From Escherichia coli (GTDB lineage: Bacteria; Pseudomonadota; Gammaproteobacteria; Enterobacterales; Enterobacteriaceae), in the NCBI RefSeq assembly GCF_009931435.1, contig NZ_CP043414.1: a DNA stretch of 64,000 nucleotides; one strand, written 5' to 3'. Below the pieces are notes generated by a model. It saw nothing but the letters and a program-made list of their open reading frames with translations, did no database searches and was not told the origin of the DNA. Position numbers and translations under genes: made by a program. Positions 7,686 through 40,831 of this stretch are shown here, piece after piece (position 1 is the stretch's first letter; every line of letters begins with the position of its first letter).

Positions 7686-7690
7686 ACACA

Positions 7691-9657: not shown

Positions 9658-9665
9658 TACTTTTC

Positions 9666-12674: not shown

Positions 12675-13210
<536 letters not shown>

Positions 13211-22166: not shown

Positions 22167-22204
22167 TTTTATTACCTCAAACCAGTATTAAGGCGATTTT
22201 AAAT

Positions 22205-22681: not shown

Positions 22682-22847
22682 TGTGTAATCCTCACCATAA
22701 AGTTGAATAATATAATTTTTTTAAATATATTATTGTTGCGATATTTTACTGATGTATTTATTAAGGTTTAGTTATCTCCTTTACCATTAAGGCACTCCCC
22801 GATATTAATCGGGAAGTACATTGGGATAAATCATAAAAAACTAATGA

Positions 22848-23720
<873 letters not shown>

Positions 23721-24875
23721 TTATGCCTGCCACGGATGAATGATTACGCCTTGCACCACGCGGTTAACGGTGCCGCTGGCTGATGGGGTATCCGGCGTAT
23801 TGCCCATATGCAGCGACTGCATCAGTGCAAACGTCTGGGCGTACATCAGGAAGCAAAATGCCTGCTCAACGTCGATAAAGTGACGTGACGGCGGCAGGAT
23901 GATATGTGGACCGGCGGTAATAACGTCGTTGCCTTCCGCGGCGATGGCGATTACGCGCATTGCCTGGTTGTCACGGCGGAGTTCTGCCAGCAGATCAAGA
24001 TCATACTGACGCGTATAGGGGTGGCTGGAGACAAACACCACCACCAGCGTTTCGTTATCGACCAGCGATTTCGGGCCATGACGGAATCCGGTCGGGGAAT
24101 CATAAAAGGCCGCCAGTTTACCCGCCGTCAGTTCCAGTACTTTCAGCGCCGACTCGCGTGCTGCGCCCTGTAAGCCACCGCTGCCGAGATAAACGATCCG
24201 TTTCCACGGTGCGTAACCAAACACACCTTCGCTGAAATCGCCCAGTGAGGTCAGGATCGCCTGGCAACGATCCGCTACGTCGCGGAAGGTCTGGCTATTG
24301 ATTGTCTCAGGTGCGAAAACCGCGAGGCAGCTGGCCATCATAGTGGTAATGCTGCTTGTCATTGCAAAGCCGCGATCGTGCGTTTCTGCGGGCATCAGCA
24401 GGGCAAACGCGTTGTCGCTGTTGATCGCGTTTTGGTAAAGAGCGCCCGCTTCGTTGCAGGTGATCGGCAGGTGATAGCATTCCGGTACAAACTGATTCGC
24501 CAGTTCCACGGCGGCGACGCTTTCCGGGCTGTTGCCAGATCGACCGAAGGAGATCAACAGCAGTGGATGAGCTGGATTCAGGTAGTCCATCGGATTAGTG
24601 ACCAGATCGGTGGTCGGTACGGCGCTGAAGTTTTTACCGGTATGGCTGGCGAGCCACGGCGCGATGATATCACCGATAAATGCCGAGGTTCCGGCTCCGG
24701 TCAGGATGATCCGCAGATTCTCTTTGCGCAGTAACGGTTCAAGGAAGTTATTGAGCGCGGAACGTAGCGCGTCGATGTTGGTGAGTGAACGGATCCATGC
24801 GCGAGGCTGATGGCGGATCTCTTCTTCAGTCCATGTGCCGGTGGTGGCGGCCGCTGGGGTGTAATTTTCTGGCAT
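23721..24875 (-). CDS. agaS: SIS-domain sugar-phosphate isomerase/deaminase AgaS
   Basis: 384 aa, two SIS domains; first gene of the agaS operon. Confidence 0.88.
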   Translation of the reverse strand: MPENYTPAAATTGTWTEEEIRHQPRAWIRSLTNIDALRSALNNFLEPLLRKENLRIILTGAGTSAFIGDIIAPWLASHTGKNFSAVPTTDLVTNPMDYLNPAHPLLLISFGRSGNSPESVAAVELANQFVPECYHLPITCNEAGALYQNAINSDNAFALLMPAETHDRGFAMTSSITTMMASCLAVFAPETINSQTFRDVADRCQAILTSLGDFSEGVFGYAPWKRIVYLGSGGLQGAARESALKVLELTAGKLAAFYDSPTGFRHGPKSLVDNETLVVVFVSSHPYTRQYDLDLLAELRRDNQAMRVIAIAAEGNDVITAGPHIILPPSRHFIDVEQAFCFLMYAQTFALMQSLHMGNTPDTPSASGTVNRVVQGVIIHPWQA

Positions 24876-24924
24876 AACTCAATCCTTAGTCTGATGAACT
24901 TGACTTCCGGCATTGCAGGCTTCG

Positions 24925-25050
24925 CTTGCCTTTCGTTTCATTTCACTTGGTGATTCGTTTCGTTGATTAAAATCTATAGAAAAGAAATCGAAAGTTCAAT
25001 GGAGAAAAAAGAAATAAAACGAAATTTGTGATCGTTGAAAGAAAAGACAA
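24925..25050. promoter_or_regulatory. agaS promoter region with clustered AgaR-operator-like TTTC/GAAA-rich motifs
   Basis: ctttcgtttcatttc, attcgtttcgttg, gaaatcgaaag, gaaataaaacgaaat seen upstream of agaS. Confidence 0.55.
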
Positions 25051-25084
25051 GGGAAGATTAAAGGATTGCGTGATAACGTCGCTA

Positions 25085-25150
25085 TGTGTACCGATTGCTG
25101 GAAGCGGCGTACCGTAGAGCGGATAAGACGCGCCAGCGTCGCATTCGACA
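25085..25150. repeat. REP-like palindromic element
   Basis: gcggataagacgcgccagcgtcgcat unit between agaS promoter and agaA 3' end. Confidence 0.5.
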
Positions 25151-25225
25151 CCACTGCACAGATTAAAACGAAAGAAAAAGAAAGGCCTTACGGGGGAAGT
25201 GAAGGCCCAATAAAGGAGCAAACCA

Positions 25226-26359
25226 TCAAAACGAAGCTAATTGACCCTGAATCCAGATTTGTTGCACATGCAGTCCGCTATTCAGCGCAACGACGCTGGC
25301 GCGTTTGCCCGGTTTAAGTGATCCCAGAACACCATCAACACCCAGCATACGCGCCGGATGCAGCGATGCCATATGGATGGCTTCCGCAGGCGTTACGCCC
25401 GTCAACTCGACCATGTTGCGCACTGCCGCATCGACAGACAGCGTACTGCCCGCCAGCCCACCGGACGCGGTACGGACAACGCCACCGTGCATCTGCACTT
25501 CTTCACCACATAACGTATAGCGACCATCCGGCATCCCGGCTGCCTGCATCGCGTCGGTGATGAGCACGATTCTCTCTTTCGCACAGCAACAACACAGCGA
25601 CATCGCCGCCGGATGAACATGATGCCCATCGGCTATCAGTTCCAGCCAGGCGCGCTTGTCCGTTAAACCCGCGCCAACCATTCCCGGTTCGCGGTGATGT
25701 AATCCTGTCATCCCGTTATAGCAATGCACCAGGCCGTCTGCGCCAGCATCAAATGCGGCGCGGGTTTGTTGCCAGGTTGCTGCGCTATGTCCCAGCATTA
25801 CCCGCACGTTCTGCTGTTTAAGATGACGAATGGCTTGTAACGCGCCCGTTTTTTCCGGTGCCAGCGCCACCACGCGCAAGGTATGCCGTGAAACAGCAAT
25901 CAATTGATCCAGCTCGGCAATTTCCAGCTCGCGAAACAGCTCCGGCGGATGTGCGCCTTTATTCTGCGGCGTGAAGTACGGCCCTTCGAGATAACTCCCC
26001 AGCACTTGCGCACCAGGTCCACCGCGCTGGCAGCGTAGCGCAATACGTTCCAGCGCCGCATGAATGGTATTAAGCGGCGCGGTTACGGTAGTCGGCAACC
26101 AACTGCCGACACCTTCCCGTGCCTTGTGCATTGCCAGCTTGTCGAGCGCATCCGGCGCGTCATCCATAACATCAACGCCCGCACCACCGTGTACATGGGT
26201 ATCGATATAAGCGGGGCAGAGCAGTTCCGCATCGCGTTCAGTCACGCCCACTGGAATCGGTTCGATTGCTGCGATTACACCGTCAGCAATACACAACTGA
26301 TGGTCATCGAGCCATCCCTCTTCAGTCAGCAGCCTTCTGGCGCGCAGAACGTGTGTCAT
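25226..26359 (-). CDS. agaA: N-acetylgalactosamine-6-phosphate deacetylase (NagA family), apparently full length
   Basis: ORF 25226..26380; start set at MTHVLRARRLL so that ATG overlaps agaF stop (ATGA); metal-binding H-x-H near N-terminus. Confidence 0.85.
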   Translation of the reverse strand: MTHVLRARRLLTEEGWLDDHQLCIADGVIAAIEPIPVGVTERDAELLCPAYIDTHVHGGAGVDVMDDAPDALDKLAMHKAREGVGSWLPTTVTAPLNTIHAALERIALRCQRGGPGAQVLGSYLEGPYFTPQNKGAHPPELFRELEIAELDQLIAVSRHTLRVVALAPEKTGALQAIRHLKQQNVRVMLGHSAATWQQTRAAFDAGADGLVHCYNGMTGLHHREPGMVGAGLTDKRAWLELIADGHHVHPAAMSLCCCCAKERIVLITDAMQAAGMPDGRYTLCGEEVQMHGGVVRTASGGLAGSTLSVDAAVRNMVELTGVTPAEAIHMASLHPARMLGVDGVLGSLKPGKRASVVALNSGLHVQQIWIQGQLASF

Positions 26360-26790
26360 ATTCCTTCCTCGACCGGACATTCTTCATGGCAGCGGCCTAA
26401 CTCGTCTACCAGACTGGTCAGCCCACGGTGTCCACACTCCAGCGCCTGCACACGGAATTCTTCACCGCTTAACCCTTCGCGCTCCAGCACCATTTCCAGT
26501 AACAGTTGCAAATTGGTGCCGGTGATCACTTCATAGCCCGGTTTTTGCATCGCCAGCGTTGAAGCCACGCGAAACGGTGTGCCGCCCAGCAAATCTGTCA
26601 GAAAAACAATGCCGTCTTCACAATCCAGTTTGGCAATGGCTTCTTCAAGCTGCGATGTAAGCAGCGCAGTGCTTGAGGTTTCCGGAAAATCAATGGCGAT
26701 AAACTGCGACTGCTCGCCGAGGATTTGCTTCATTGCTTTTTCCATGCCGCTGGCAAATCCGCCATGCCCTGTCAAAATAATACTTAACAT
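26356..26790 (-). CDS. agaF: PTS mannose-family EIIA component
   Basis: 144 aa; MLSIILTGHGGFASG... Confidence 0.85.
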   Translation of the reverse strand: MLSIILTGHGGFASGMEKAMKQILGEQSQFIAIDFPETSSTALLTSQLEEAIAKLDCEDGIVFLTDLLGGTPFRVASTLAMQKPGYEVITGTNLQLLLEMVLEREGLSGEEFRVQALECGHRGLTSLVDELGRCHEECPVEEGI

Positions 26791-26807
26791 CTAATACCTC
26801 ATTGTAT

Positions 26808-27692
26808 TTAAAGGAAATGACAGAATTTACCGACGATGCCAAGAACCACGGTAACCGCAATCAGGCGCAGCGGACTCCAGCCGCGGCGTACCAGCCAGAA
26901 CATGGTCAGGGTGTAGACCAGCGGTAAGAAGGCAGGCATCAGTTTGTCGATAACGTCAGCCTGCAGCTTAACCACTGCATCGCCCGCCGTGATTTCCAGC
27001 GTGGTGCTTAAACGAACATAGGTTGCCACCAGCGCGCCGATCACCGTCATCCCAACGATAGACGCTGCATGGCCGACTTTTTTGGTATTCGCTTTAATGA
27101 GTGGGATCGCCGCCACGCCCATGCGGTAAGCATAATGCGCCAGACCAAAACGCAGCCCCAGGTGTACCACGTTAAACAGCACAATAAACACGACTGCGCC
27201 AAGAATAGAGCCTTGCAATGCCAGACTGGCACCAATCCCGCCACAAATCGGCAGTAACGTTAGCCAGAACATGGCATCGCCAATCCCACCGAGCGGCGCA
27301 CCGACGGCAATTTTGGTGCTCTGAATACTGTTAACGTCCTGCTTAGAACGCTCCATCGCGAGGATAATGCCAATAACAAACGTCACCAGAAACGGATGGG
27401 TATTGAAGAAACCCATATGCCCCTTCATGGCGCGCGCCAGGTCGCGTTTATTAGTGTGGATCTTTTTCAGAGCAGGCAGCAGACCGTACAACCAGCCGGA
27501 AGCCTGCATACGTTCGTAGTTAAAAGACGCTTGTAACAGCATGGAACGCCAGGCGACGCGGTTGATATCTTTTTTTGTTAGCTCCGCGCCAATGCTCTGA
27601 TCTTCATACACGTTTTCATTGACGCCTGTCAGTAGTGTTTCTTCGTTTTCACTGACGTTCGGCAGGGTAGTTTGATTAGATGCCATCTTCAA
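26808..27692 (-). CDS. agaE: PTS mannose-family EIID component (N-acetylgalactosamine-specific)
   Basis: 294-aa membrane ORF, paralogous to agaD. Confidence 0.85.
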   Translation of the reverse strand: MKMASNQTTLPNVSENEETLLTGVNENVYEDQSIGAELTKKDINRVAWRSMLLQASFNYERMQASGWLYGLLPALKKIHTNKRDLARAMKGHMGFFNTHPFLVTFVIGIILAMERSKQDVNSIQSTKIAVGAPLGGIGDAMFWLTLLPICGGIGASLALQGSILGAVVFIVLFNVVHLGLRFGLAHYAYRMGVAAIPLIKANTKKVGHAASIVGMTVIGALVATYVRLSTTLEITAGDAVVKLQADVIDKLMPAFLPLVYTLTMFWLVRRGWSPLRLIAVTVVLGIVGKFCHFL

Positions 27693-28455
27693 ATTCCTCT
27701 TTCTGTGCCGCAGGTTGAGTCGGTTCAGGAGATTTACGCAGCAGGTCGATCAGCGCCATCGCCAGCGCGGCGGCAGCAATAGCCAGCACCGGTAACTTGA
27801 GCCAGGCGGCGGCAACGAAGCCCAGGATGAAGTAGGGGATATAGACGTTTTTCATCATGATTTTCAGCAGCACGGCAAAACCGATTGCTGGCATGATGCC
27901 GCCCGCGACGCCAAGGCCGTCGATTAACCGTTGCGGCAGGACATCAATGATGGTTTTTGCATGCTCCGCGCCGAAGTAGATAGGCAGGAAAGCGCAGAGA
28001 AAATAGAACGTGCCGAGTGCCAGCAATGCCAGATAGTTCACGCGTTCAATGCCGCGAGTATCGGCGTTCTCCGCCATCCGGTCGCAGCGGGACATCACGC
28101 CAGACATCACCGAGAACAGGAAGGTAATCCCCATCTGTACTGCGACAGCGAAAGGTACGGCGACACCGACCGCGACATCCGGTTTCACGCCAGTAGTAAT
28201 GGCAAACGCCGTGCCGACGATAGTTCCGATAATCACGTTAGGCGGCTGTGCGCCCGCCAGCGGTGCCAGCCCCATCCACACCAGTTCCAGCGTACCGCCG
28301 GTTAAAATACCGGTATGCAGATCGCCAAGCACCAACCCAACTAACGGGCCGAGGACCACCGGGCGGTGCATATGGGTTAGGCCGTTAAACATATCCAGGC
28401 CAGCGATAAAGGCGATAATGCCCAACGCAAATGCCTGCAACAGACTGATTTCCAT
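27676..28455 (-). CDS. agaW: PTS mannose-family EIIC component (N-acetylgalactosamine-specific), full length
   Basis: 259-aa membrane ORF, paralogous to agaC. Confidence 0.85.
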   Translation of the reverse strand: MEISLLQAFALGIIAFIAGLDMFNGLTHMHRPVVLGPLVGLVLGDLHTGILTGGTLELVWMGLAPLAGAQPPNVIIGTIVGTAFAITTGVKPDVAVGVAVPFAVAVQMGITFLFSVMSGVMSRCDRMAENADTRGIERVNYLALLALGTFYFLCAFLPIYFGAEHAKTIIDVLPQRLIDGLGVAGGIMPAIGFAVLLKIMMKNVYIPYFILGFVAAAWLKLPVLAIAAAALAMALIDLLRKSPEPTQPAAQKEEFEDGI

Positions 28456-28465
28456 GATGAATCCC

Positions 28466-28939
28466 TCAAAGTAATTTAAAGAGGTCCACAGCAGGCTCTG
28501 TCGGGACGCCCTGAACGAAGCATTCCACCCCAGCGGCTTTCAGGTCGTTAAATGCTGCGATATCGCCCGCATCCACAGAAACCGTTTTGGCGATTTGTTG
28601 CTTGCCATTGGCGTAGTGCATATTGCCAACGTTAATGCGATTCACCGGAACGCCACCTTTCACCAGCGTCAGGAAATCGGCAGGTGTTTTACAAACCAGC
28701 AGGATTTTCTGTCGATCGGCGGCGCGATGAATGTTGTCGATCACTTTTTGCAGCGTCCAGAAACGTACGGCGATCCCTTCTGCCAGCACCATTTCCATCA
28801 GGTTTTGTTGTACCGGATCTTCGGCAACCTCATCATTGGCTACCAGCACCAGATTTGCCCCCGCAAATCCGACCCACTGAACGCCGACCTGACCGTGAAT
28901 CAAGCGTTCATCAATCCGGCTTAAAACAATATTTGGCAT
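28466..28939 (-). CDS. agaV: PTS mannose-family EIIB component (N-acetylgalactosamine-specific), 157 aa
   Basis: ORF 28466..28975; start set at MPNIVLSRIDERLIHGQ. Confidence 0.85.
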   Translation of the reverse strand: MPNIVLSRIDERLIHGQVGVQWVGFAGANLVLVANDEVAEDPVQQNLMEMVLAEGIAVRFWTLQKVIDNIHRAADRQKILLVCKTPADFLTLVKGGVPVNRINVGNMHYANGKQQIAKTVSVDAGDIAAFNDLKAAGVECFVQGVPTEPAVDLFKLL

Positions 28940-28961
28940 AGCGTGTTCCTCTTTGTTTTGC

Positions 28962-30242
28962 TTATTGGCCTTCACAGGCTGTGTGGTACTGCGCCAGGAT
29001 GTCCTGAATATGGTTGATAATGAGTTCCCGTGGCGTTGGCTGCAGCTCGCCGGAGCGAACTTTCACGTATTGCAGCGGCAGGTACTGACTGATGAGCGGC
29101 AGCGGAATTGGCGCATCCGCCAGGTTACGAACCAGATGAGCGAAAGCGTCATCAATCTGGCTGTCCGGCCAGTAATAGCGCACGCGATCCGAGTAGCTAT
29201 AACCACGCGCCAGACGACGCGCGTTGCCGTCACCGTGGTAGTGGCTTTGCCAGTATTCCGGGCGGTCGAGCATCACGTTTTCCAGCACCTGACGCAGACC
29301 GGAACAGGCTTTTGCTGGCACCAGTTCTTCTTCAATCGCCGCCAGAGAGAACAGAGCTTCACGCAGGGCGAAGGTCAGCGCTGGGCCAACTTTCAGAATG
29401 GCAAAGTGGTCAATCACCAGCTGGCGCAGCGATTGCGGCGTTTGGTAATCGGTAGAGTGCGCTTCGAAAATCAGCGTTTCGTAGTTTTCGACCATCTGGC
29501 TTAAGGCGGTCGCTTTAGCTGGCTGATAATCAATAACGTTGGTGTGATCGAATTCGACGCCGGGTTGTACCACCAGAGCAATGATGCGTGGCCAGATGGC
29601 ATTCAGACCTTGCTTTTCAAAGGCGTGACGATGGGCTTCCAGCGTGGCGCGGGCGGCATCCGGCGTAGTGACCGCCAGCTCGCTTAAGGTTTCATGCGCG
29701 CCGCCAGGTACCGGCACTTCGGTACCAATGACATACACCAGATCGGCTTCGCCAAAGTGTTCACGGCAGGTTTCTTCCGCGACTTTAGCCAGTCGGGCGG
29801 CGCGTTCAGCCACGATGTCATCGGTTAAGGGAACCGGATCGTCCTGACAGGACATGCTGCAATCAAGGTGAATTTTTTTGAATCCTGCCGCCACGTAGCT
29901 TTTAATCAAATCATCGGCATTGGCCATCGCCTGAGCTGCAGGCAGGTTTTGCCAGCGGTTTGGCCCCAGATGATCGCCACCCAGAATCAACGCGTCTTGT
30001 GGGAAATTCAATGAGTCGGCGAGCTGACAAACAAAGCCGCGAAAATCGGCGGGTGTCATTCCGGTATAACCACCGAACTGGTCCACCTGATTGGATGTCG
30101 CTTCAATCAGTAACGGTGTTTGGTTTACACTGGCGTAGCGGATTGCAGCTTCCAGCACCAGCGGGTGTGCGGAACAAACGGCATAAATCCCATTTGTTTT
30201 GCCCTCTTTGTGCTGCCTCACCATTTCTGTCAGATGTTTCAC
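28962..30242 (-). CDS. kbaZ: tagatose-bisphosphate aldolase non-catalytic subunit KbaZ (426 aa, GTG start)
   Basis: ORF 28962..30308; start set at in-frame GTG ([10 protein letters not shown]...); the longer ATG-initiated form would run into the operator region. Confidence 0.8.
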
Positions 30243-30314
30243 TTTCCTCTCCAGTTCAGATTGCTGCGATATTAATCTTTCGTTTTGTTTCAGTTGATAC
30301 TGCGTCATGGTGAG

Positions 30315-30478
30315 ATAAAAATAAAACGAAAGATAATAGTTTTCTGATCTGATTCACAAAAGAAACATAATGAAAGTCACTGAAACGAGAGTAGCTTGCG
30401 TCAATGGGCAAGGTGGGCTTGCATTTGCTCAATAGAAAGGCGTAAATAGGCAAAACGAAATGAAACGAAAGTTTTACG
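30315..30478. promoter_or_regulatory. divergent kbaZ / agaR promoter region with AgaR operator-like motifs
   Basis: aaataaaacgaaag and aacgaaatgaaacgaaag motifs in the intergenic gap. Confidence 0.6.
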
Positions 30479-30490
30479 AAAGGACTTACT

Positions 30491-31300
30491 ATGAGTAATA
30501 CCGACGCTTCAGGCGAGAAGCGAGTGACAGGCACCAGCGAGCGACGAGAACAAATCATTCAGCGCCTGCGACAGCAAGGGAGTGTGCAGGTTAACGATCT
30601 GTCGGCATTGTATGGCGTATCTACTGTGACGATCCGCAACGATCTGGCTTTTCTGGAAAAGCAGGGGATCGCTGTGCGGGCCTATGGCGGCGCGTTGATC
30701 TGCGATAGCACGACGCCGTCAGTCGAGCCATCAGTGGAAGATAAAAGCGCGCTGAACACTGCGATGAAACGCAGCGTTGCGAAAGCTGCCGTTGAGTTGA
30801 TTCAGCCAGGTCATCGGGTGATCCTCGATTCCGGGACCACCACGTTTGAGATTGCTCGTCTGATGCGCAAGCACACCGACGTAATTGCGATGACCAATGG
30901 TATGAACGTAGCCAATGCACTGCTGGAAGCAGAAGGCGTTGAACTTCTTATGACCGGCGGGCATCTGCGGCGTCAGTCGCAATCTTTTTACGGCGATCAG
31001 GCTGAACAATCGCTACAAAATTACCACTTTGATATGCTTTTTCTCGGCGTAGATGCGATCGATCTGGAGCGCGGCGTCAGCACGCATAATGAAGATGAAG
31101 CCCGTTTAAACCGTCGGATGTGCGAAGTTGCGGAACGGATCATTGTGGTCACCGATTCCAGTAAGTTCAACCGTTCCAGTTTACATAAGATCATTGATAC
31201 TCAACGTATCGACATGATCATTGTTGATGAAGGCATTCCTGCGGATAGTCTGGAAGGCCTGCGAAAGGCTGGGGTTGAAGTGATTCTGGTCGGGGAGTGA
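30491..31300 (+). CDS. agaR: DeoR-family transcriptional repressor of the aga operons
   Basis: 269 aa; N-terminal HTH (…[17 protein letters not shown]…) and DeoR sugar-phosphate-binding C-domain. Confidence 0.9.
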
Positions 31301-31589
31301 GAAATGGCGCCCGTAGCTCAACACGGATGTGTTCGGCGGGCATTGTTCACTGACCTTTTACAGCCTGTTTTCTGCTCAAATTAGAAACTTCAGCAAAGGT
31401 AATGCAAATGCATTATTAACAGCAGAAAGCGCCAGAACCAACGAAAAAAGAGAGCATGTTTCCCATTTTGCGAGGCGCTTTCCAAATCACCCGCTCAGTC
31501 CCCTCGCGTTGCAGTGCTAAAAGCACTATTTTGCAAATTTGTGACCTTCTTCACTCTCCCAAAAGGCGGTGATCTCACGGTGGGGATCC

Positions 31590-31815
31590 ACTTTCTGCTT
31601 TCGCTTTTCTGCCGTTAGCACTCGCTATTTCGGCATCTCTTCTTTTCACTTTTTCAGTTTGTCATTTTCATTTGCGGTCAACCGAAAGTTCTGGAGTCGA
31701 TTTTTCCAGGTTTCAACGCCGTTGTCGCGTTCACAAATTCACTTCTTTTCTTCTGATGTAATGCATTCAAAAGAAAATGAAAGCTGCAAAATGCAAGAAT
31801 GCAACGAAATACTTT
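31590..31815. promoter_or_regulatory. long leader of the second DeoR gene, rich in TTTC/GAAA repeats (candidate operator array)
   Basis: ctttctgctttcgcttttctgcc, tcttttcactttttcagtttgtcattttcatttgcgg, gaaaatgaaagctg; motif class resembles the aga operators. Confidence 0.4.
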
Positions 31816-31832
31816 TTCAGGGAGCGATAAAC

Positions 31833-32603
31833 ATGCTAGATAGCCTAAGACGCCGCGAACAAATCATTGATTTGTTATGTGCCCAGGGAAGCGTACGCGT
31901 TGAGCCGCTCAGCATCCATTTTGGTGTCTCATCGGTCACGATCCGCAATGACTTACGGTATCTGGAGCAAAAAGGTTGCGTCATGCGTTCCTATGGCGGT
32001 GCCGTGTTGAATCAACACTTTGCGCTCGACAGACCCTTGCAGGATAAAGATCGCCTTAATCGTGATGTTAAAGTGCGAATTGCCGAAAAAGCGGCCAGTT
32101 TTGTCAAAGATGGCGATACATTAATTATCGATTCTGGTTCAACGACCACGCTAATTCCCGCTTCGCTCAAAGGGCGTCGGGATTTAGTCGTCATGACGAA
32201 TGCCTTGAATATCGCCTGGGAAATGGCCAGTTTTGAACGGGTGGATGTTATGATCCTTGGTGGAAATGTTCGCCAGAGCGTCTACTCCCTGTATGGGCCT
32301 TCGGCAGAACAACAACTCCGGCAGTATCGCTTTGATAAGCTGTTTTTGGGCGTGGACGGCTTTTGCCTTGAAGCAGGGATTACCACACCACATCCGGGTG
32401 AGGCACATCTGAACCAGGTGATGTGCCAGGTTGCGCAGGAAATTACTGTTGTCGCGGACTCCAGTAAATTTGGCCGCAAAAGCTTCTGTATGATCGGTGA
32501 AGTGAGCGAGATAGATCGACTGATTACCGATAGCGGTATTCCGGAGAATTACAAAGCAGCATTAACGCAAATGGGTGTGGAAGTTGTGATTGCTGATGAG
32601 TGA
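31833..32603 (+). CDS. DeoR-family transcriptional regulator, AgaR paralogue (256 aa)
   Basis: ORF 31569..32603; start set at MLDSLRRREQIIDLL preceded by GGAG; alignable by eye with AgaR along its length (…VTIRNDL..LE.KG…YGGA…DSG.TT…FLGVD…). Confidence 0.8.
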   Translation: MLDSLRRREQIIDLLCAQGSVRVEPLSIHFGVSSVTIRNDLRYLEQKGCVMRSYGGAVLNQHFALDRPLQDKDRLNRDVKVRIAEKAASFVKDGDTLIIDSGSTTTLIPASLKGRRDLVVMTNALNIAWEMASFERVDVMILGGNVRQSVYSLYGPSAEQQLRQYRFDKLFLGVDGFCLEAGITTPHPGEAHLNQVMCQVAQEITVVADSSKFGRKSFCMIGEVSEIDRLITDSGIPENYKAALTQMGVEVVIADE

Positions 32604-32604
32604 G

Positions 32605-32642
32605 AAAATGTGGCTGGAGATAAACGTCGCCAGCCACATTAC
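32605..32642. terminator. bidirectional hairpin terminator between convergent DeoR gene and ROK kinase gene
   Basis: aatgtggctgg...ccagccacatt inverted repeat. Confidence 0.6.
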
Positions 32643-32647
32643 GTTAT

Positions 32648-33559
32648 TCAGGTTGCAAGTTCGATTTGCAGCAACGCCGCGCCTCGTACACCGCTCGTTG
32701 CTCCGTGAATCGCAGAAAATACGCGCGCAGGTTCCAGTCCAGGAAGAAGATAACGCGTCATAGCTTTCGGCAATAACGTGTAAATTTCTTTGAAGTTAGA
32801 CACACCGCCGCCAAGAACAAATGCATCTACGTCGAGAATATGCTGCAACTGTGCCAGCGTACAACCAACCATATCTATCCAGGCGCTAATGGTGGTGATG
32901 GCACTGGGAACGCCACGTTGATGATTTTCTAACAATGTCTCCATAGTGATTTGCTCACCGCTGAAATGCTTATGTAACCAGAGCAAGCCAGGACCGGACT
33001 GGTAGCGTTCCAGGCACCCTTGCAAACCGCAGCCGCATTGTAATTCAGGCAGGTTATAGCGCCGCGTAAATGTCGCCGGGAGCGGTAAATGGCCAAACTC
33101 GCAGGCCATACGGTTACGGCCACGGTACAACTGGCCATCAATAACTAATCCCCCGCCCATACCCGTGCCGATAATCGCGCCAAAGATCCGACTATATTGA
33201 CGAGCTTGATCGGTATGCGCTTCTGATAGGGCGAAGCAGCAGCAGTCATTATCCATTATTACCGGGCGGTTAAGGCGATTTGCCAGATCGGTTAACACCT
33301 GGCGTCCGGTCAGGCAGGGAACGTTAGAAGACAACAGTTTACCGGTGTGCCGATCCATAACGCCGGGCATCCCGATACCTATTTTGCCTTGCGTACCCGT
33401 GGCCCAGTCAGCGGTATCAATCAGAGACACAAATGTGGATAGAAAAAGCGCGTAATCCTGAACAGGCGTAGCTACCCGCTTGCGCCAGCAAATTTGTAAA
33501 TCCTGATCAAAGGCGACTATCTCTGTTTTGGTTCCACCAATATCAACACCGTAAAACAT
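32648..33559 (-). CDS. ROK-family sugar kinase (NagK-like N-acetylhexosamine kinase candidate), 303 aa
   Basis: N-terminal GVDIGGTK ATP motif; ROK zinc motif CGCGLQGCLERY; same length as the NagK family. Confidence 0.8.
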   Translation of the reverse strand: MFYGVDIGGTKTEIVAFDQDLQICWRKRVATPVQDYALFLSTFVSLIDTADWATGTQGKIGIGMPGVMDRHTGKLLSSNVPCLTGRQVLTDLANRLNRPVIMDNDCCCFALSEAHTDQARQYSRIFGAIIGTGMGGGLVIDGQLYRGRNRMACEFGHLPLPATFTRRYNLPELQCGCGLQGCLERYQSGPGLLWLHKHFSGEQITMETLLENHQRGVPSAITTISAWIDMVGCTLAQLQHILDVDAFVLGGGVSNFKEIYTLLPKAMTRYLLPGLEPARVFSAIHGATSGVRGAALLQIELAT

Positions 33560-33577
33560 CGCTCATCTCCTTTGGTT

Positions 33578-34834
33578 TCACAGCACAACCAGGGTATTTT
33601 CCTTGCGAGCGCGTTCGGCGGCAAAGACCATTAAATGACTTTCGAGCGATTCATCTGGTCCTGAAAGGATCATCGCTCGATCGTCAGCCATCACGGCATG
33701 GATAAAGCTGTCCATCAGATAGTAATCACCACCACCGTGCCCTCCCATTTGGGTGTGAGTGCCTGCGTTTTTCTCTTCAACGGTGTAAATAGTTTCCTGG
33801 TCGGTGAGAAAATCAAAACACCGAATGGTGTTGCCATCGCCTTCCAGATAACCTTTCGAACCGAAAACTCGGGTTTTGCGATCCTCCATTTTCGTAAAGG
33901 CTGTCATTGTAAAAGTGACGCTCTGCTGATGCGCAAACTGCATGTTTACCACTTGATGATCAACAACATCGTTATCGCAGCAATAAACACAGCGACCATA
34001 GGGGCCGTCACGCAGGGCCTGACGAATATTCTCTTCAGTAGGATTTGGTGTTAACACGTGGCGAAAGTGAAACGTACATTTATGGGCTTCGCCAGCATAA
34101 ATTTTGCATGCGGACCACGGGCAGGTCGCTTCTGCCTGGCAATCGAGACAGCGTTCGGCTGCGCCTTCAGGTTGGTTTTGTTTTACAAAATGGTTGAGCC
34201 CGCCAAATGAGCTAACGGTTTTACAGTTGTCTCCCATGATGTAGCGGATCCAGTCCAGATCGTGGCAGGACTTTTGTAACAACATAAATGATGATTCAGC
34301 CTCGTTGCGCCAGTTACCACGCACAAAAGAGTGTGCCTGGTGCCAGTAACCGACGGGTTCGAGATGCTGCATACTGATAATGTCGCCAATGATGCCGCTG
34401 TCGAGTAAGGATTTGAGTTTTTGTGTATATCGGGTGTAACGAAGAACGTGTGCGACGGCTAATAAGACATTATTGCGTTTGACGGCATCAATGATAATGC
34501 GGCAATCGTGCTCTGTTGGCGCGAGCGGTTTTTCCAACAGAATGTGATAACCGAGATCGGCAAAAGCGACGGCCGGATCTCTATGCATATTGTCTTGCGT
34601 ACAAATAAGTACAGCATCAGCCATTTTTGGCCGAGCAGCAGCCTCTTTCCAGTTGCTAAAAATATTATCTGTCGGGATCGTATGCCGGGACACAACTTGC
34701 TCGCGGTAAGCCTCTCTAGGTTCAGCAACACCTACCACTTGCATTCTGTCCGGATGCTCAAGGGCATAGCGGGAATATATTTCTCCACGTGCGCCTGCAC
34801 CTATTACTAAAACAGTGACTTTATTTTTACTCAT
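33578..34834 (-). CDS. Gfo/Idh/MocA-family NAD(P)-dependent oxidoreductase with Cys-rich insert
   Basis: N-terminal Rossmann VLVIGAGARG and EKP motif (LLEKPLA); internal Cys cluster CLDCQAEATCPWSACK ... CVYCCD. Confidence 0.75.
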   Translation of the reverse strand: MSKNKVTVLVIGAGARGEIYSRYALEHPDRMQVVGVAEPREAYREQVVSRHTIPTDNIFSNWKEAAARPKMADAVLICTQDNMHRDPAVAFADLGYHILLEKPLAPTEHDCRIIIDAVKRNNVLLAVAHVLRYTRYTQKLKSLLDSGIIGDIISMQHLEPVGYWHQAHSFVRGNWRNEAESSFMLLQKSCHDLDWIRYIMGDNCKTVSSFGGLNHFVKQNQPEGAAERCLDCQAEATCPWSACKIYAGEAHKCTFHFRHVLTPNPTEENIRQALRDGPYGRCVYCCDNDVVDHQVVNMQFAHQQSVTFTMTAFTKMEDRKTRVFGSKGYLEGDGNTIRCFDFLTDQETIYTVEEKNAGTHTQMGGHGGGDYYLMDSFIHAVMADDRAMILSGPDESLESHLMVFAAERARKENTLVVL

Positions 34835-34876
34835 ATAAAGAAATACCTTTCTGATAAATTCATCTTAATTGCTACG

Positions 34877-35635
34877 TTATAAATTACGAAAACTAACAAG
34901 ATGAAATCCGTGTTTTTCAATCGCATATTTGAGTGACGGTGTAGTCAGAACCGTAAGTTCTTCCAGCCGTTGATAGCAGTAACTGCTCGACATTAAGTGG
35001 TTATCTACAAATCCAGGGTGACACATAATTTCCAGCGATTTTTCATCACGTTTTATGGCGCTATCGAGGAGTGATAAAAAAAAGTCTTCTGAAATATTAT
35101 TATCGTAGAAATTACTGCTGAATCCCTCACTACTTTTGGCATCCAGCGAATCGATTTTTTTCTCTCGCAGGACAGAATGGTCTATACGTAATGGTAAATT
35201 TTTCTCACGCGCGAACCGCGCGACAACGGGATAAACCTGCGGGAGCATATGAACGCTGTGATGGCTGTCTAAATGGGTGGGCTCCCGTTTAAATACATCA
35301 ATAAAACGTTGATATTGAGAATTCAGTTCCTGTTCAATTTCACCCGTGTTTAATTGCCCTTGCTCCGCGACATCCCAGATCCATTTACCTAATTGGCCTG
35401 CGCGTACCAGCGAAGGCATATCCGTTAAGGCAGCGCCATAGCTCAAAACAAAATGTAACCCGACGCCGAGCTGTGGGGTTTCGGCACTTAAAGAGGCAGC
35501 ATGATCAATTGCCGGAGCATTCATCATCGCAGTTGTTGAGCGAACGACACCATTTCGTACTGCCTCGATAATTCCATAATTAATACCTTTACTTAGTCCA
35601 AAGTCATCCGCATTCACAATTAATAAGCGTTGCAT
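34877..35635 (-). CDS. YdjC/ChbG-family carbohydrate deacetylase
   Basis: MQRLLIVNADDFGLSKGINYGIIEA... and HLDSHH metal-site motif typical of the ChbG/YdjC family. Confidence 0.85.
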   Translation of the reverse strand: MQRLLIVNADDFGLSKGINYGIIEAVRNGVVRSTTAMMNAPAIDHAASLSAETPQLGVGLHFVLSYGAALTDMPSLVRAGQLGKWIWDVAEQGQLNTGEIEQELNSQYQRFIDVFKREPTHLDSHHSVHMLPQVYPVVARFAREKNLPLRIDHSVLREKKIDSLDAKSSEGFSSNFYDNNISEDFFLSLLDSAIKRDEKSLEIMCHPGFVDNHLMSSSYCYQRLEELTVLTTPSLKYAIEKHGFHLVSFRNL

Positions 35636-35647
35636 AAGGCGTCCTTG

Positions 35648-37000
35648 TTATTGATGAGATTGGGTAAGTTCAGCAATGGTGCTGGAAAATTGAGGCAGAT
35701 GTTTTTTATGGGCAATGATCAGTTCACGTACTAATTTTTCAGCGTCGTTATCCGAGGTCATTAGCGGGTTAAGGCACAGAGCCAGCAGCGTATCGTTATA
35801 GTTACCACTTATTGCCGCCCGGGCTGCCGCGATCTCAAAACATTTGATTGAATGAATGAGCCCCAGTACATTTTCGTCAAAATGAGTGAGACGCGGGTGG
35901 GGGGTAACACCGTTATTCCCCAGAATGCAGGTCATTTCAACGGTCCAGTCTTCAGGGATATTTTTTACACTGCCCTTGTGTGGAATATTAACGTAGTGTT
36001 CTGTTTGCGTGTCATTATAAATTGCATTAATAACGGCACAGGCTGCATCTGAATAATACGCACCACCACGCAGCTCCAGTTCTTCAGGTTTTGTATTTAG
36101 TTCTGGGTCCTTATACAGCTCAAATAATTTTTTCTCTAATGCCTGCACGACTTGTGCACGAACGCCATTTTTATAAAATTCCCCCATCTCAATAGCGAGC
36201 ATTTCTTTATGTTTAAAATAGTAACGTAAGTAAGCACAGGGCAGGAGATTAAGTGCCCGAATTAAATTAGGATTGAAGGTTAAACTGTCAATATTTTTGA
36301 CGGTACTTCCTTCAAGCAAACCTTCAACGACGCCATCGAGCAATTCAGCAAAACGTGATTGTCCATTGACCCATACGTCTTTAAGAAAGACCATATGATT
36401 TAAGCCAAATATGTCTATTGAAAGATCATCGTCCGCGCCAAGTTTTAGGGCATTGCAAACGAAGCTCTTCATCCCAATAGGGACATTACAGACACCGATA
36501 AAACGTTTAAATTGGGTATGGCGGTACACGGCTTCAGTAACCATCCCGGCAGGATTGGTAAAATTAATAATCCAGGCATCAGGGCAAAGTTCCTCAACAT
36601 CTTTGATAATATCAAAAACTACTGGAATGGTTCGTAACCCGTTGAATAAACCGCCCGCGCCATTGGTTTCTTGCCCGAGATATCCCTGACTTAGTGGAAT
36701 CAACTCATCCATTTCCCGAGCTTTTAATTGCCCGACCCGAAATTGTGTGGTGACAAAGTGCGCGCCCTGTAATGCAGCGCGACGGTCAAGTGTTTTCACT
36801 ATTTTTAACGGAATGCCAGCTTTTATCACCATCCGCTGACAAAGGTCGAAAATAATGTCCAGCTTTTCTTTGCCTTCTTCAATATCAACTAACCATAATT
36901 CACTGACCGGTAATTCATCGTAGCGTTTTATGAATCCTTCAAGGAGTTCTGGTGTATAGCTACTGCCACCGCCAATAGTAACGATTTTTAAGTTTTTCAT
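35648..37000 (-). CDS. glycoside hydrolase family 4 NAD+/Mn2+-dependent 6-phospho-glycosidase (ChbF-like), 450 aa
   Basis: N-terminal KIVTIGGGSSYTPEL dinucleotide-binding signature and GH4-type core (…FINFTNPAG…CNVPIGM…). Confidence 0.85.
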   Translation of the reverse strand: MKNLKIVTIGGGSSYTPELLEGFIKRYDELPVSELWLVDIEEGKEKLDIIFDLCQRMVIKAGIPLKIVKTLDRRAALQGAHFVTTQFRVGQLKAREMDELIPLSQGYLGQETNGAGGLFNGLRTIPVVFDIIKDVEELCPDAWIINFTNPAGMVTEAVYRHTQFKRFIGVCNVPIGMKSFVCNALKLGADDDLSIDIFGLNHMVFLKDVWVNGQSRFAELLDGVVEGLLEGSTVKNIDSLTFNPNLIRALNLLPCAYLRYYFKHKEMLAIEMGEFYKNGVRAQVVQALEKKLFELYKDPELNTKPEELELRGGAYYSDAACAVINAIYNDTQTEHYVNIPHKGSVKNIPEDWTVEMTCILGNNGVTPHPRLTHFDENVLGLIHSIKCFEIAAARAAISGNYNDTLLALCLNPLMTSDNDAEKLVRELIIAHKKHLPQFSSTIAELTQSHQ

Positions 37001-37077
37001 GTTACTTCCATACTCAATATTAAATTGACTTGTGATGCCATGGTTTTATCTAAACGCTGGCATGATGAAGTGTGCTA

Positions 37078-38439
37078 TTAAAACTTTAATGCATTGGCAA
37101 TGTCTTCTTCGCTTTCTTGTTTAATTATTTCAACTTGTGCTTTGTTTGAGATAATGACAAAGGGAAGATAAACCATTGTGGCAACACCTAAGTTAAAGAG
37201 CGCCAGGAGTAATCCAGCAATGCTACCATTCGAGCTAAAGAACGCATTGAGTCCAGGAGGCATGGTCCAGGGGGCAATATTTGTTGATGGCGGAATAATA
37301 CCCATGTTATAGGCGATTAAGGTAATCCCGGCGAGAATAGGTTGAATCATCACAAACGGGATTAACATAATGGGGTTCATAATGATCGGCAAACCAAATA
37401 AAATAGGTTCGTTGATATTAAAGATACCAGAAGGTAACGCTAATTTAGCAACCTGACGATAATCTTCCCGGCGTGACGCAATGAAAATGGCGAAAATGAG
37501 TCCCAGCGTTGCCCCTGTTCCACCGAGGAACACGTAAGCGTCAAGCATTGGCCCGGTCCAGAAATGGAAGGTTTTTCCTGCTTCCAGTGCCGCTTGTACT
37601 GAACCATATTGTGTATAGGTGGCGATATTCTCCAGTCCCCACGGACCCAACGTGCTGCTTTGCAACGCGGTTAATACTAAGCCGCCGTGGATACCAAAGA
37701 ACCATAACAGGGAATTAAAGACAACGAATGTCCAGCCAACAATACCGCTCATTGACGTTAATGGCGTAGCCAGTGAGGTGATAATGACCTGATGGAAATT
37801 GGTGCCATATATCGACAATATCCCAGACAAACTACCCATAATTAACAGGATGATAAACCCGGGCACCATTGCTGAGAATGAGCGTGATACTGCGGTCGGA
37901 ACACTCGCGGGCAACCGAATCACCCAATTGCGGCGGATAATAAAAGCGAAAATTTCCGCTACAACTAATCCAATGATCATACCAGACAGAATATTGGCGC
38001 CGCCTAACCAGTTTGCACCAATGACATTAGCGGTTTCTCCTGCCTTGAAGGGGGTGACAGTCATAAACGCTGCGACAGAGAGTAAGCCAACGGATAACGA
38101 ATCAACTTTCCGTTCTTCGGCCAACCCCATCCCAATAAAAAAGGGGGTCATGAGTGACATAATGCCCAGCGTGCCATGATAAGCACTGTCACCGACGACG
38201 GTGAAGGCGCTTAAGGTTTTTATGGTCGATGGTTCCAGTCGGACGCCTAATGAATAAAAAAAGGAGCCTTCGCCAAAATCTAAAAAAACGCTATTAATGA
38301 GGACAAATAACGTACCGGCTAACGTTAATGGCATCATACGGATAAAACCGTTTTTTATTGCATTGACGTGAGGTTGTTTCCCTAATTTAACTGCAAAAGG
38401 AAGAATGAGTTTTTCAAGTAACGCCATCACTCCGGGCAT
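37078..38439 (-). CDS. PTS lactose/cellobiose-family EIIC component (ChbC-like)
   Basis: 453-aa polytopic membrane ORF with the lactose/cellobiose-family EIIC motif …[14 protein letters not shown]…. Confidence 0.85.
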
Positions 38440-38508
38440 AAAAATATCCTTATATACCGATTAATGTATCACTGCGACTTTGGTTTTATTAATATCCTGT
38501 TGCTATGG

Positions 38509-38826
38509 TTACTTTTGCTCTTTTTTTATTATGGCGATAGCTGATTTTAGAACACCTAAGCCATCAATTTTTCCATATAACATTGAATCAATAACTTCCA
38601 CTGGCTTTCCTGGTAATAAGCTTTGGATCTCTGATTGCATGTAAGCAATTTGAGGTCCCAATAATATAACATCGGCTTCCGGCCCTTTCTCTGCGGCAAC
38701 AGATTCGGAGAATGCTTCGATAATTACTGGCACATCATATTTTATCGCCTGCACTTTCATTTTTGACACCAGCAGTGATGTTGACATTCCCGCTGAACAA
38801 AATAAGTATATTTTTTTCTTTTCCAT
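38509..38826 (-). CDS. PTS lactose/cellobiose-family EIIB component (ChbB-like), 105 aa
   Basis: ORF 38509..39042; start set at [23 protein letters not shown] (phospho-Cys motif), preceded by GGAG. Confidence 0.8.
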
Positions 38827-39059
38827 AGGGACTCCAGATATATTACGTAATAATATATTTGTCATGCCATGAATGGCATATGAGGCGACTTTAATTAAAA
38901 AGGCACGGATGTTTATATTGATTTCCTGAATGTCGTCTTTTGGTATTAATCTCAAAAATTTCAGGAGCCATTGAATAATCTGGTTTATAGGATTGAATGT
39001 CAAGAGAGTGAAATTGTGGGCGTGTTGTAATAAAAATAGCACGGCTTTCGGTAGGTTTC

Positions 39060-39165
39060 TTTTTTAGCGGAATGAAAAGTACAGGCAAAATGGTAATTGA
39101 ATAAATTAACGTTTTTTCAATAGATTACGTTTTTTTCTGCCTACAGGAATGAAAAAAACAACAAT
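39060..39165 (-). promoter_or_regulatory. putative promoter/operator region of the EIIB-led operon with two GGAATGAAAA repeats
   Basis: gcggaatgaaaagtacagg and acaggaatgaaaaaaacaac about 75 bp apart in AT-rich DNA upstream of the EIIB start. Confidence 0.35.
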
Positions 39166-39211
39166 CTAAAAATACTTTAGATATGTGAGAGTTATCACTT
39201 ACTTTTCGTGG

Positions 39212-39245
39212 GGAAAACGGGGAAACACAGTCTCCCCGTTTTCCG
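39212..39245 (-). terminator. garD rho-independent terminator
   Basis: aaacgggga...tccccgttt hairpin immediately downstream of garD stop. Confidence 0.65.
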
Positions 39246-39259
39246 TTCATGCAAGGCCG

Positions 39260-40831
39260 TCAAGTCACCGGTGCCGGGTTAAACACCGCCAGCTGGTTAT
39301 GCAGTCCCCATTGATCTGAGAAGGTTTTCTTCTTCCCGCTGGCGACGTCGAGAATAAAATGGAACAATTTCCAGCCCACCTCTTCAATAGTTTCTTCGCC
39401 GGTAGCGATGGTGCCCGCATTAATATCCATTAAATCAAACCAGCGGTTCGCCAGCTCGGTGCGGGTCGCCATTTTAATGACGGGTACCGCCATCAGGCCG
39501 TACGGCGTGCCGCGACCGGTCGTAAACACTTGCACGGTAATCCCTGATGCCACCTGTTGCGTGCCACAGACAAAATCGCTGGCTGGCGTCGCGGCGTAAA
39601 TTAATCCGCGTTTAGTCGGGCGTTGACCGGGCGATAGCACTTCAACAATTGCGCTTTTACCCGATTTAGCAATGGAGCCGAGAGCCTTCTCCACTACGTT
39701 TGCCAGACCGCCTTTCTTGTTGCCCGGAGAAGGGTTGGCGCTGCGGTCGGTTTTTCCCATATTGAGATAGTTATCGTACCACTCCATCTCCTCCAGCAGC
39801 CGTTTGCCGACCTCTTCGTTCACTGCGCGTGGTGTCAGCAGATGGATCGCGTCACGCACTTCTGTGACTTCTGAAAACATCACCGTTGCGCCGCAGCGCA
39901 CCAGTAGATCAGACGCATACCCAACCGCCGGGTTTGCCGTTACGCCAGAAAACGCATCGCTGCCACCGCACTGCATGCCGACAACCAGTTCTGAAGCCGG
40001 ACAGGTTTCTCGCTGACGTTGATTCAGTTTTTGTAGATGGCGTTCGGCGACCTGCAAAATATCCTCGACCATGGACTGAAAACCGACATGCTTTTCATCC
40101 TGCAAACTGACAATGCTGGCGCTTTCTACTGGAATAGCTTGCACATCATCCGTTCCAGTCAGCAGGCGCTCAGGCTGCAACTTTTCACAACCCAGACCAA
40201 TCACCATTACTTCGCCGCCAAAGTTAGGGTTCAGCGAAATATTGTGAATGGTACGAATAGGCACAACTGCCGCCGGTGCGTTAATCGCCACGCCACAACC
40301 GTACAAATGATTCAGCCCCACCACGCCATCGACGTTCGGGTATTTCGGTAGCAGATCGCGTTCAATGATTTTTACTACATAGTCCACCACGCCTGCCACA
40401 CAGTGGACGCTGGTGGTGATGCCGAGCAGGTTTTTGGTGCCCACGCTGCCATCGGCATTGCGATAGCCCTCAAAGGTGTATCCTTCCAGTGGCGGTAAGG
40501 GGGCCGGGACTTTAGTTGCCAGTGGCAGCGTGTGTAACGGTGGCGCTTCCGGTAGTACAACCATTGATTCGTCGATCCAGCTTCCGCGTGGGATTGCGCG
40601 CACGGCGTAACCAATCACTTCACCATAACGAATAATTTCACCATTAGCCGGAATGTCCAGCAATGCGACTTTATGCCCCTGGGGAATATGTTCAATTAAT
40701 TCCAGCCCATCCGGAAAACGCGTTCCTGCTTTCAGGCCATTATCATTAACAATAATTGCCACATTATCTGTGTCGTGAACTTTTATATAAAACGCAGTTG
40801 GCGTTTCTTGTCTGATTTCGATGTTGGCCAT
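39260..40831 (-). CDS. garD: galactarate dehydratase (L-threo-3-deoxy-hexulosonate-forming)
   Basis: 523 aa; [28 protein letters not shown]...; divergent from garPLRK. Confidence 0.9.

Follow-up and report, generated by a model that had tools for sequence, protein, structure and literature searches.

The chbBCARFG operon of Escherichia coli combines uptake through the phosphotransferase system (PTS), a single deacetylation and NAD/Mn-dependent cleavage of a 6-phospho-disaccharide by a glycoside hydrolase of family 4 (GH4) (PMC9402603). In the aga operon of Shewanella (agaR-agaO-agaZ-agaS-agaK-agaAII-agaP), as its genes are described in PMC2996990, the DeoR-type regulator AgaR, the Gfo/Idh/MocA protein AgaO and the ROK-family N-acetylgalactosamine (GalNAc) kinase AgaK are paired in one regulon. 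The locus considered here, which lies between agaR and garD in a 64,000-nucleotide stretch of an E. coli genome (contig NZ_CP043414.1, assembly GCF_009931435.1; the whole stretch is called the window below), recalls both systems. A gene for a DeoR-type regulator converges there on genes for a ROK-family kinase, a 418-residue Gfo/Idh/MocA protein (labelled GFO throughout) and four Chb-like proteins (Table 1). We put the probability at roughly 45% that these genes make up a single, hybrid catabolic operon controlled by a repressor of its own, and that the operon would import and split a beta-linked N-acetylhexosamine glycoside and feed the adjacent aga pathway; we infer both the substrate and the chemistry of GFO from sequence. 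A literature search for the locus returned no relevant description.

Exchange of an ABC importer for a chb-like cassette

Relatives of the locus point to two parts of different age. A GFO-based scan of one genome per species gave 37 loci, and in three Citrobacter loci (including C. werkmanii) and in Escherichia sp. MOD1-EC7003 the genes for GFO, the ROK kinase and the regulator occupy the same garD/agaR-side position. These operons share with ours an orthologous promoter/operator, and their proteins are close to those of the window (GFO 83–84% amino-acid identity, ROK 84–86%, repressor 91–93%). They differ in that uptake is through an ABC importer for sugars encoded by four genes (one for a binding protein, two for permeases and one for an ATPase), and they contain neither a GH4 enzyme nor a deacetylase. 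Judged from this comparison, the regulator, ROK kinase and GFO are the older module, and the chb-like genes are a later insert that replaced the ABC importer. The first-pass annotation of the locus, made from the letters and translations, had described the oxidoreductase and the kinase as additions to a chb-like layout; both are indeed present, but the word "added" applies to the wrong part, since the older genes are GFO, ROK and the regulator.

The junctions of the exchange can be placed on the alignments. DNA homology to the ABC-type locus of MOD1-EC7003 extends over 31420-34835, stops exactly at the start codon of GFO and picks up again at the stop codon of garD. On the promoter side, five aligned regions part ways after GGCTCCTGAAATTT at 38956-38969, about 20 bp past the -10 box. 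The exchanged stretch is therefore 34836-38955, comprising a leader and four genes, and by this reasoning four ABC genes were swapped for chbB-chbC-chbF-chbG in this Escherichia lineage. The leader showed no meaningful similarity to chbB upstream regions. Upstream of it, blocks of the promoter region are conserved in E. coli, Escherichia sp. E3659, C. werkmanii and MOD1-EC7003, and a scan of 31000-39500 against Rfam brought no family to threshold and hence no structured RNA leader.

The chb-like cassette

Profile searches recovered each of the seven protein families that had been named from the translations. Pfam E-values across the seven proteins range from 5.8e-12 to 5e-70 (HTH_DeoR, DeoRC, ROK, the N- and C-terminal GFO_IDH_MocA domains, YdjC, Glyco_hydro_4, Glyco_hydro_4C, PTS_EIIC and PTS_IIB), and four proteins, namely EIIC, YdjC, EIIB and the regulator, pass curated NCBIfam cut-offs. 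The cassette proteins are 81, 73, 74.6 and 59% identical in amino acids to ChbB, ChbC, ChbF and ChbG of E. coli, respectively. EIIB reaches 189.8 bits with model NF007796 (cut-off 157) and has the active-site Cys10, and EIIC reaches 800.6 bits with the ChbC model NF007634 (cut-off 760). The YdjC protein reaches 351 bits with the model for chitin disaccharide deacetylase (ChbG; cut-off 227) and keeps D10, D11, H61, H125, H206 and R223, the residues defined for Klebsiella ChbG (PMC9402603). The GH4 enzyme contains the Glyco_hydro_4 and 4C domains with intact CNVP and GLNH motifs, and both enzymes retain their metal and catalytic residues. The gene orders chbB-chbC and chbF-chbG are kept, catalytic residues match, and the chemistry expected of the cassette is the same as that of chbBCARFG.

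The setting of the cassette is different. The locus has neither ChbA (EIIA) nor ChbR and lies at garD/agaR, not at osmE/katE; its promoter and DeoR/AgaR-type repressor stem from an unrelated operon, and the GFO and ROK genes follow the chb-like ones. No AraC-type ChbR was found in the locus among open reading frames (ORFs) or by Pfam and NCBIfam, its regulator being of the DeoR/AgaR type; the ORF list and Pfam thus agree with the layout first proposed, which was chb-like without EIIA and ChbR and with a DeoR regulator in place. Inducer and substrate probably differ from those of chbBCARFG. The closest outside relatives of the cassette proteins (~80%) come from chbBCARFG operons of canonical make-up and position, and the cassette is therefore a chb operon without chbA and chbR. 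A recent copy of the strain's own chb operon was rejected as its source, given 68% nucleotide and 59–81% protein identity. All but one of the 5,426 complete E. coli genomes (5,425) have the core chb operon, and RMDEC465, a carrier of the present locus, has both loci. In Superficieibacter sp. 1612_C1, two complete chbBCARFG operons stand in tandem at the canonical locus (locus extract 342-11128). Swaps of this kind may have drawn their spare chb cassettes from such tandem operons.

The locus could also be a second chitobiose or cellobiose system. The ChbBCFG paralogues would then import and cleave (GlcNAc)2 or cellobiose, the ROK enzyme would act like NagK on N-acetylglucosamine (GlcNAc), GFO would be a passenger or catalyse a side reaction, and the galactosamine link would be mere neighbourhood. 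The passing scores of EIIC and YdjC with the ChbC and ChbG models, the identities to the E. coli Chb proteins, the closest relatives in canonical chb operons and a kinase whose closest NCBIfam model is NagK all agree with this account. The kinase, however, stays below the NagK cut-off (306.3 bits against 380), ChbR and ChbA are missing, and an AgaR-like repressor and a promoter derived from the ABC operon are in control. Moreover, E. coli already owns a chb operon, and GFO shows purifying selection within the PTS-type operon (dN/dS, the ratio of nonsynonymous to synonymous divergence, of 0.105 at a synonymous divergence, dS, of 0.60). We consider a second chitobiose system rather unlikely.

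Links to the galactosamine pathway

The hybrid operon that we favour is tied to amino-sugar metabolism by its regulator and by the company that the older module keeps elsewhere. The regulator scores 364.3 bits with the NCBIfam AgaR model NF040755 (cut-off 260), and its recognition helix is nearly identical to that of the E. coli AgaR encoded 0.5 kb away; with only 43.7% identity to this neighbour overall, it is therefore an AgaR paralogue. The region upstream of its gene is conserved in Citrobacter, and the homology to the MOD1-EC7003 locus begins at its first position. TTTC-rich repeats are seen in the island. In Cedecea colo, two loci of Enterobacterales bacterium and Vibrio profundi, the ABC-GFO-ROK-regulator genes are joined to kbaZ, a gene for an AgaS-family isomerase and kbaY. 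The kbaZ-agaS-kbaY genes constitute the route from galactosamine to tagatose, which is thus joined to the older module in those genera. No aga PTS and no AgaA were found within ~20 kb of these fused loci, which leaves the ABC importer and ROK kinase as the sole visible way in to AgaS. Beside the Cedecea operon, in divergent orientation, is a GH123 gene (Pfam E = 1.6e-106), GH123 being a family of beta-N-acetylgalactosaminidases. In the Citrobacter operons, GFO is the sole candidate glycosidase behind an oligosaccharide-type importer.

The ROK kinase itself (Pfam ROK, 2.6e-58) contains the DIGGTK and CGCGLQGC motifs, and its zinc motif is intact. The combination of an AgaR, a Gfo/Idh/MocA protein and a ROK kinase in one aga regulon is shared with Shewanella; the fusion to kbaZ-agaS-kbaY that the module shows in Cedecea and Vibrio is a further likeness. 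The two Gfo/Idh/MocA proteins, like the two kinases, are likened here by family description. The gene descriptions in PMC2996990 give AgaO as a secreted lipoprotein and uptake as through a permease, whereas GFO is cytoplasmic and has a Cys-rich insert.

The window contains a complete aga/gam cluster at 19814-30308 (agaI, agaD, agaC, agaB, kbaY, agaS, agaA, agaF, agaE, agaW, agaV and kbaZ), unlike K-12, which carries the known agaW-agaA deletion. The strain is therefore predicted to manage both GalNAc-6-phosphate and galactosamine (GalN)-6-phosphate. An N-acetylated beta-linked disaccharide had been guessed as the substrate; the AgaR-paralogue regulator and the galactosamine tie of the module narrow this guess without settling it.

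The Gfo/Idh/MocA protein as a candidate glycosidase

The clade to which GFO belongs is large, with 8,000 or more clusters at E <= 1e-30, and spreads over Paenibacillus, Clostridia, Lentisphaerae and Enterobacterales; nearly all of these clusters are labelled oxidoreductase or dehydrogenase only. The Pfam NAD-binding domain PF01408 is recovered at E = 2.8e-18, and the AlphaFold2 model has a mean confidence score (pLDDT) of 87. Across 27 diverse members, K102 of the EKP motif, Y133, H191 and H366 of the GGHGGGD loop are invariant. So are C229, C232, C238 and C282 in an insert of ~60 residues (within residues 215-290), in which C286 is nearly so. The insert looks like a zinc or iron-sulfur site on the strength of these cysteines, and the PDB comparisons made for GFO turned up no comparable Cys insert. 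Distant relatives of GFO in metagenome-assembled genomes of Lachnospiraceae and Bacillota are encoded directly beside a GH29 alpha-L-fucosidase (for one Lachnospiraceae locus, locus extract 8679-11239), and in that locus the pair comes after sugar ABC importer genes. The GH29 neighbours are hints that clade substrates may be host-glycan or fucosylated. In Izemoplasmatales, distant relatives have housekeeping neighbours, which are uninformative.

GH109 enzymes are alpha-N-acetylgalactosaminidases and GH188 enzymes are sulfoquinovosidases, and GFO shares the Gfo/Idh/MocA fold with both; its NAD domain and its GGHGGGD loop with the invariant H366 are features of GH109. A single-sequence PDB search with the C-terminal half of GFO gave no matches, and profiles were needed; C-terminal profile searches select GH109 and GH188, and a profile of the last 80 alignment columns has AmGH109A as its best PDB match, exactly at the GGHGG loop. 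For a profile-profile comparison, 21 full-length GH109-like proteins were assembled, the first of which was verified as GH109. In this comparison GHGGGD pairs in register with GGHGGMD, and H-x-E..YWH with HAE..YIH. The GH188 enzyme has Lys107, Tyr136, His193 and His321 at the sugar, and its two histidines have been equated with His259 and His404 of GH109 (PMC10755693); the acid/base of GH109 is placed in the GGHGG loop by a 2020 paper, as cited in the same source. By position number, K102, Y133, H191 and H366 of GFO lie near the four GH188 residues.

A number of results speak against a glycosidase of this kind. By itself the GH109 loop match falls short of significance (E = 0.16), the 99.4% probability that hhalign gives for GFO and the GH109 set reflects mostly the shared fold, and Y163, which aligns with the catalytic Tyr of GH109, varies across the clade. 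The Pfam domain Glyco_hydro_109_C does not match GFO even at E <= 10, compared with 2e-59 for a bona fide GH109 control. No export signal is present at the N-terminus, which enters the Rossmann motif directly (MSKNKVTVLVIGAGARG), and the GH109 control protein has a weak match to a twin-arginine translocation (TAT) signal (E 0.022). GFO also differs from GH109 and GH188 in its ~17–20% identity, the lack of a TAT signal and the insert with four or five conserved cysteines, and from GH109 in retaining the EKP lysine where GH109 has EVP. On these comparisons GFO is probably not a member of GH109, though its mode of action is probably related.

The best PDB sequence matches of GFO are E. coli YjhC (NanY), Ruminococcus gnavus NanOx (RgNanOx), levoglucosan dehydrogenase and anhydrofructose reductase, which Foldseek also ranks at the top; that the leading matches YjhC and NanOx (E = 9e-17 for the sequence by itself and 8e-24 for the profile) are anhydro-sugar oxidoreductases counts likewise against the glycosidase. 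YjhC and NanOx are cytoplasmic Gfo/Idh/MocA proteins with bound NAD and catalyse a redox-assisted, net non-redox reaction in sugar scavenging; their gene context, that of sialic acid, differs from the one here. GFO might accordingly serve the same pathway as a true oxidoreductase or redox isomerase, converting a sugar that was imported or released, for instance an amino sugar in anhydro, keto or epimeric form, to one that the kinase can take, as YjhC/NanOx do with 2,7-anhydro-sialic acid or as levoglucosan dehydrogenase does. Such a role would remove the redundancy with GH4 and would suit the failure to match the GH109 Pfam domain. The PDB sequence matches, however, span the NAD-binding half only (residues 1-215), whereas the C-terminal profile selects GH109 and GH188; the loop histidine is invariant, and the Citrobacter and Vibrio operons have no other glycosidase after an oligosaccharide-type ABC importer. 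An oxidoreductase is in our view unlikely.

The glycosidase reading can be widened to the whole clade, although we think this broader proposal somewhat likelier to fail than to stand. The clade would be a new cytoplasmic, NAD-dependent glycosidase family related to GH109/GH188, marked by the GGHGG-x-D loop and a four-cysteine metal site, with glycosides of the galactosamine type as its targets here. On that view, the exchange of ABC for PTS genes would demonstrate that a new class of transporter requires a different glycosidase, the change being from an NAD enzyme on the free glycoside to GH4 and a deacetylase on the 6-phosphate.

Distribution, insertion site and maintenance

The locus is rare and strain-variable, as the first-pass annotation had supposed. 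Among 5,426 complete E. coli genomes the block is present in only three: R32_14_1F from a goat and RMDEC465 from a human, each 99.6% identical to the window, and GF4-3 from a guinea fowl, 92.5% identical. The block is thus not core in K-12 or in most E. coli; K-12 has yhaV-prlF between agaR and garD, as that annotation had stated. The exact proteins were found on only 19–43 contigs of a 15-billion-protein collection, and in the 90%-identity clusters of the six operon genes all named members are E. coli or unclassified Escherichia. The compositional claim of that annotation, that the region is AT-richer than its surroundings, holds against the aga flank on the left (GC 0.448 against 0.521) but not against the gar flank on the right (0.464).

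The island and the loss of prlF-yhaV have separate histories. GF4-3 has prlF-yhaV and the island together, and prlF likewise accompanies the island in two strains of the cryptic clades, Escherichia sp. E3659 and Escherichia sp. E4385. Because these three genomes have prlF and the island side by side, the island is placed between the prlF promoter and garD, and a single-step substitution of the island for prlF-yhaV was ruled out. In alignment with K-12, the prlF-yhaV deletion junction falls at 31335-31346, within the microhomology GCGGGCAT(TGT) of 8–10 bp, and the two other carriers with 99.6% identity are likewise without prlF-yhaV. As read from this alignment, the loss in this lineage is a deletion event separate from the island. 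The orphaned 84 bp of the prlF promoter region now adjoin the stop codon of agaR. In GF4-3, yhaV contains an internal stop (locus extract 3546-4010), and in E4385 an IS605-family OrfB/TnpB-like gene occupies the expected place of yhaV, beside prlF and the island (locus extract 12026-13175).

Homologous recombination is the suggested mode of entry. The 1–2 kb on either side of the island are 94–97% identical to K-12, compared with 98.4–98.8% farther out; the flanks of raised divergence are 29500-31300 (the 5' end of kbaZ, and agaR) and 39260-40000 (the 3' end of garD), which suggests that they were imported together with the island. No integrase, transposase, insertion sequence (IS) element or tRNA target was found at the locus with the ORF list, and an inverted- and direct-repeat search revealed no flanking repeats. 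A mobile genomic island was rejected on these grounds.

The genes differ widely in dS between the window and GF4-3 (0.10–0.62), a spread that on these values is a recombination mosaic. All seven genes have dN/dS of 0.02–0.16 in this comparison and are by this measure under purifying selection. Identity to the islands of the cryptic clades is 92–98%, like that of flanking core genes. From the low dN/dS and the match to core genes, it follows that the seven-gene arrangement is old and maintained, and no recent accident. These data also bear on the view that the locus is a cryptic or decaying relic, unable to transport without its own EIIA and persisting only through recent import. Its great rarity in E. 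coli, the frameshift in the EIIC gene of RMDEC465 (locus extract 10078-11438), the absence of EIIA from the operon and genes that look fragmented in one assembly of E4385 would fit decay. Against it, a second E4385 assembly has full-length proteins, none of the seven ORFs is interrupted in the window, R32_14_1F, GF4-3 or E3659, catalytic residues are intact, dN/dS is low at dS up to 0.6, and ChbA is on hand in nearly every E. coli. Decay is therefore very improbable as an account of the locus.

Table 1. Features of the agaR-garD locus, in window coordinates
Feature	Coordinates	Strand	Basis or remark
agaR	30491-31300	+	ORF list
Remnant of prlF promoter/5' end, 84 bp	31336-31419	.	90.5% identical to the K-12 prlF upstream region, found in >5,100 genomes
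Upstream region of the regulator gene	31420-31832	+	TTTC/GAAA-rich repeats, e.g. 31642-31677 and 31769-31787; candidate operators
DeoR-type regulator, AgaR paralogue, 256 aa (amino acids)	31833-32603	+	start as annotated in RefSeq for a genome of 99.6% identity
Hairpin between the convergent regulator and kinase genes	32607-32640	.	inverted repeat, 14-nt (nucleotide) arms, 93% complementary
ROK-family sugar kinase, 303 aa, without DNA-binding domain	32648-33559	-	Pfam ROK
GFO, cytoplasmic Gfo/Idh/MocA-fold NAD enzyme, 418 aa, with Cys-rich insert and GGHGGGD loop; proposed NAD-dependent glycosidase	33578-34834	-	
YdjC/ChbG-type disaccharide deacetylase, 252 aa	34877-35635	-	NCBIfam
GH4 6-phospho-beta-glycosidase, ChbF-like, 450 aa	35648-37000	-	Pfam
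PTS EIIC, lactose/cellobiose family, ChbC-like, 453 aa	37078-38439	-	NCBIfam
PTS EIIB, ChbB-like, 105 aa, Cys10	38509-38826	-	NCBIfam
Leader specific to the chb-like cassette	38827-38955	-	without counterpart in ABC-type loci
Promoter/operator region common to PTS-type and ABC-type operons	38956-39211	-	conserved blocks; putative function
Predicted -10, GATTAT	38975-38980	-	same match as the -35, 10/12
Predicted -35, TTGACA	38998-39003	-	best promoter match of the region, 10/12
Conserved block GAAACCTACCGAAAG	39045-39059	-	
TTTTCATTCC repeats	39069-39083 and 39146-39160	-	
CRP-like palindrome AGTGATAACTCTCACA, near-perfect	39183-39200	-	kept in PTS-type and ABC-type loci
garD terminator hairpin, right edge of the locus	39212-39244	-	inverted repeat, 15-nt arms, 93% complementary
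garD	39260-40831	-	ORF list

The hairpin between the convergent regulator and kinase genes is, from its position and symmetry, probably a terminator serving both.

Proposed pathway

The steps that we propose for the hybrid operon are drawn from family knowledge. EIIC and EIIB would import a beta-linked N-acetylhexosamine disaccharide or glycoside and phosphorylate the non-reducing sugar at O6, with phosphate supplied by ChbA borrowed from the core chb operon. The YdjC enzyme would strip one acetyl group, and GH4 would cleave the product, yielding hexosamine-6-phosphate and leaving the reducing-end sugar or glycoside free. Any leftover aglycone would be taken off by GFO in the role of a GH109/GH188-type, NAD-dependent glycosidase, and the ROK kinase would phosphorylate the freed GalNAc, GalN or GlcNAc. 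The products would pass into the complete neighbouring aga (or nag) pathway, and a phosphorylated amino sugar would free the AgaR-like repressor from inherited operators of the TTTC type.

Other observations sit badly with this scheme. No EIIA is encoded in the locus, neither by an ORF in the 77-bp gap between the EIIC and GH4 genes nor by any locus protein matching PTS_IIA in Pfam. A second glycosidase besides GH4 would, speculatively, require a trisaccharide or glycoside as substrate, and the 73–81% identity to ChbB, ChbC and ChbF allows a plain chitobiose or cellobiose role with no link to galactosamine. The CRP-like palindrome lies ~220 bp upstream of the predicted start, an unusual distance, and may serve another promoter. 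The site scan for operators used the published E. coli AgaR consensus. It matches the agaS and kbaZ/agaR promoters (five matches against 0.27 expected by chance) and finds no site in 31301-39259 at <=3 mismatches. Canonical AgaR operators inside the island were rejected on this result.

Implications

For now, the locus is a rare accessory sugar operon whose annotation is automatic. Beyond the family assignments already made for it, the present analysis adds a mosaic origin, exact junctions, a tie to galactosamine and the GH109-like features of GFO. The operon is a clean natural case of modular operon evolution, in which a cassette of PTS, GH4 and deacetylase genes has come to stand in place of an ABC importer. 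The swap falls exactly between the kept promoter/operator and the first kept enzyme gene, and the chb genes have thereby shed their activator and EIIA. For E. coli, our reading links a rare trait to the gut amino-sugar (aga) pathways, with a short, testable list of candidate substrates. The locus also draws attention to an unstudied and very large branch among the Gfo/Idh/MocA proteins, whose members may be glycosidases and not dehydrogenases. If that proves true, the annotation of carbohydrate enzymes in many soil and gut bacteria would change.

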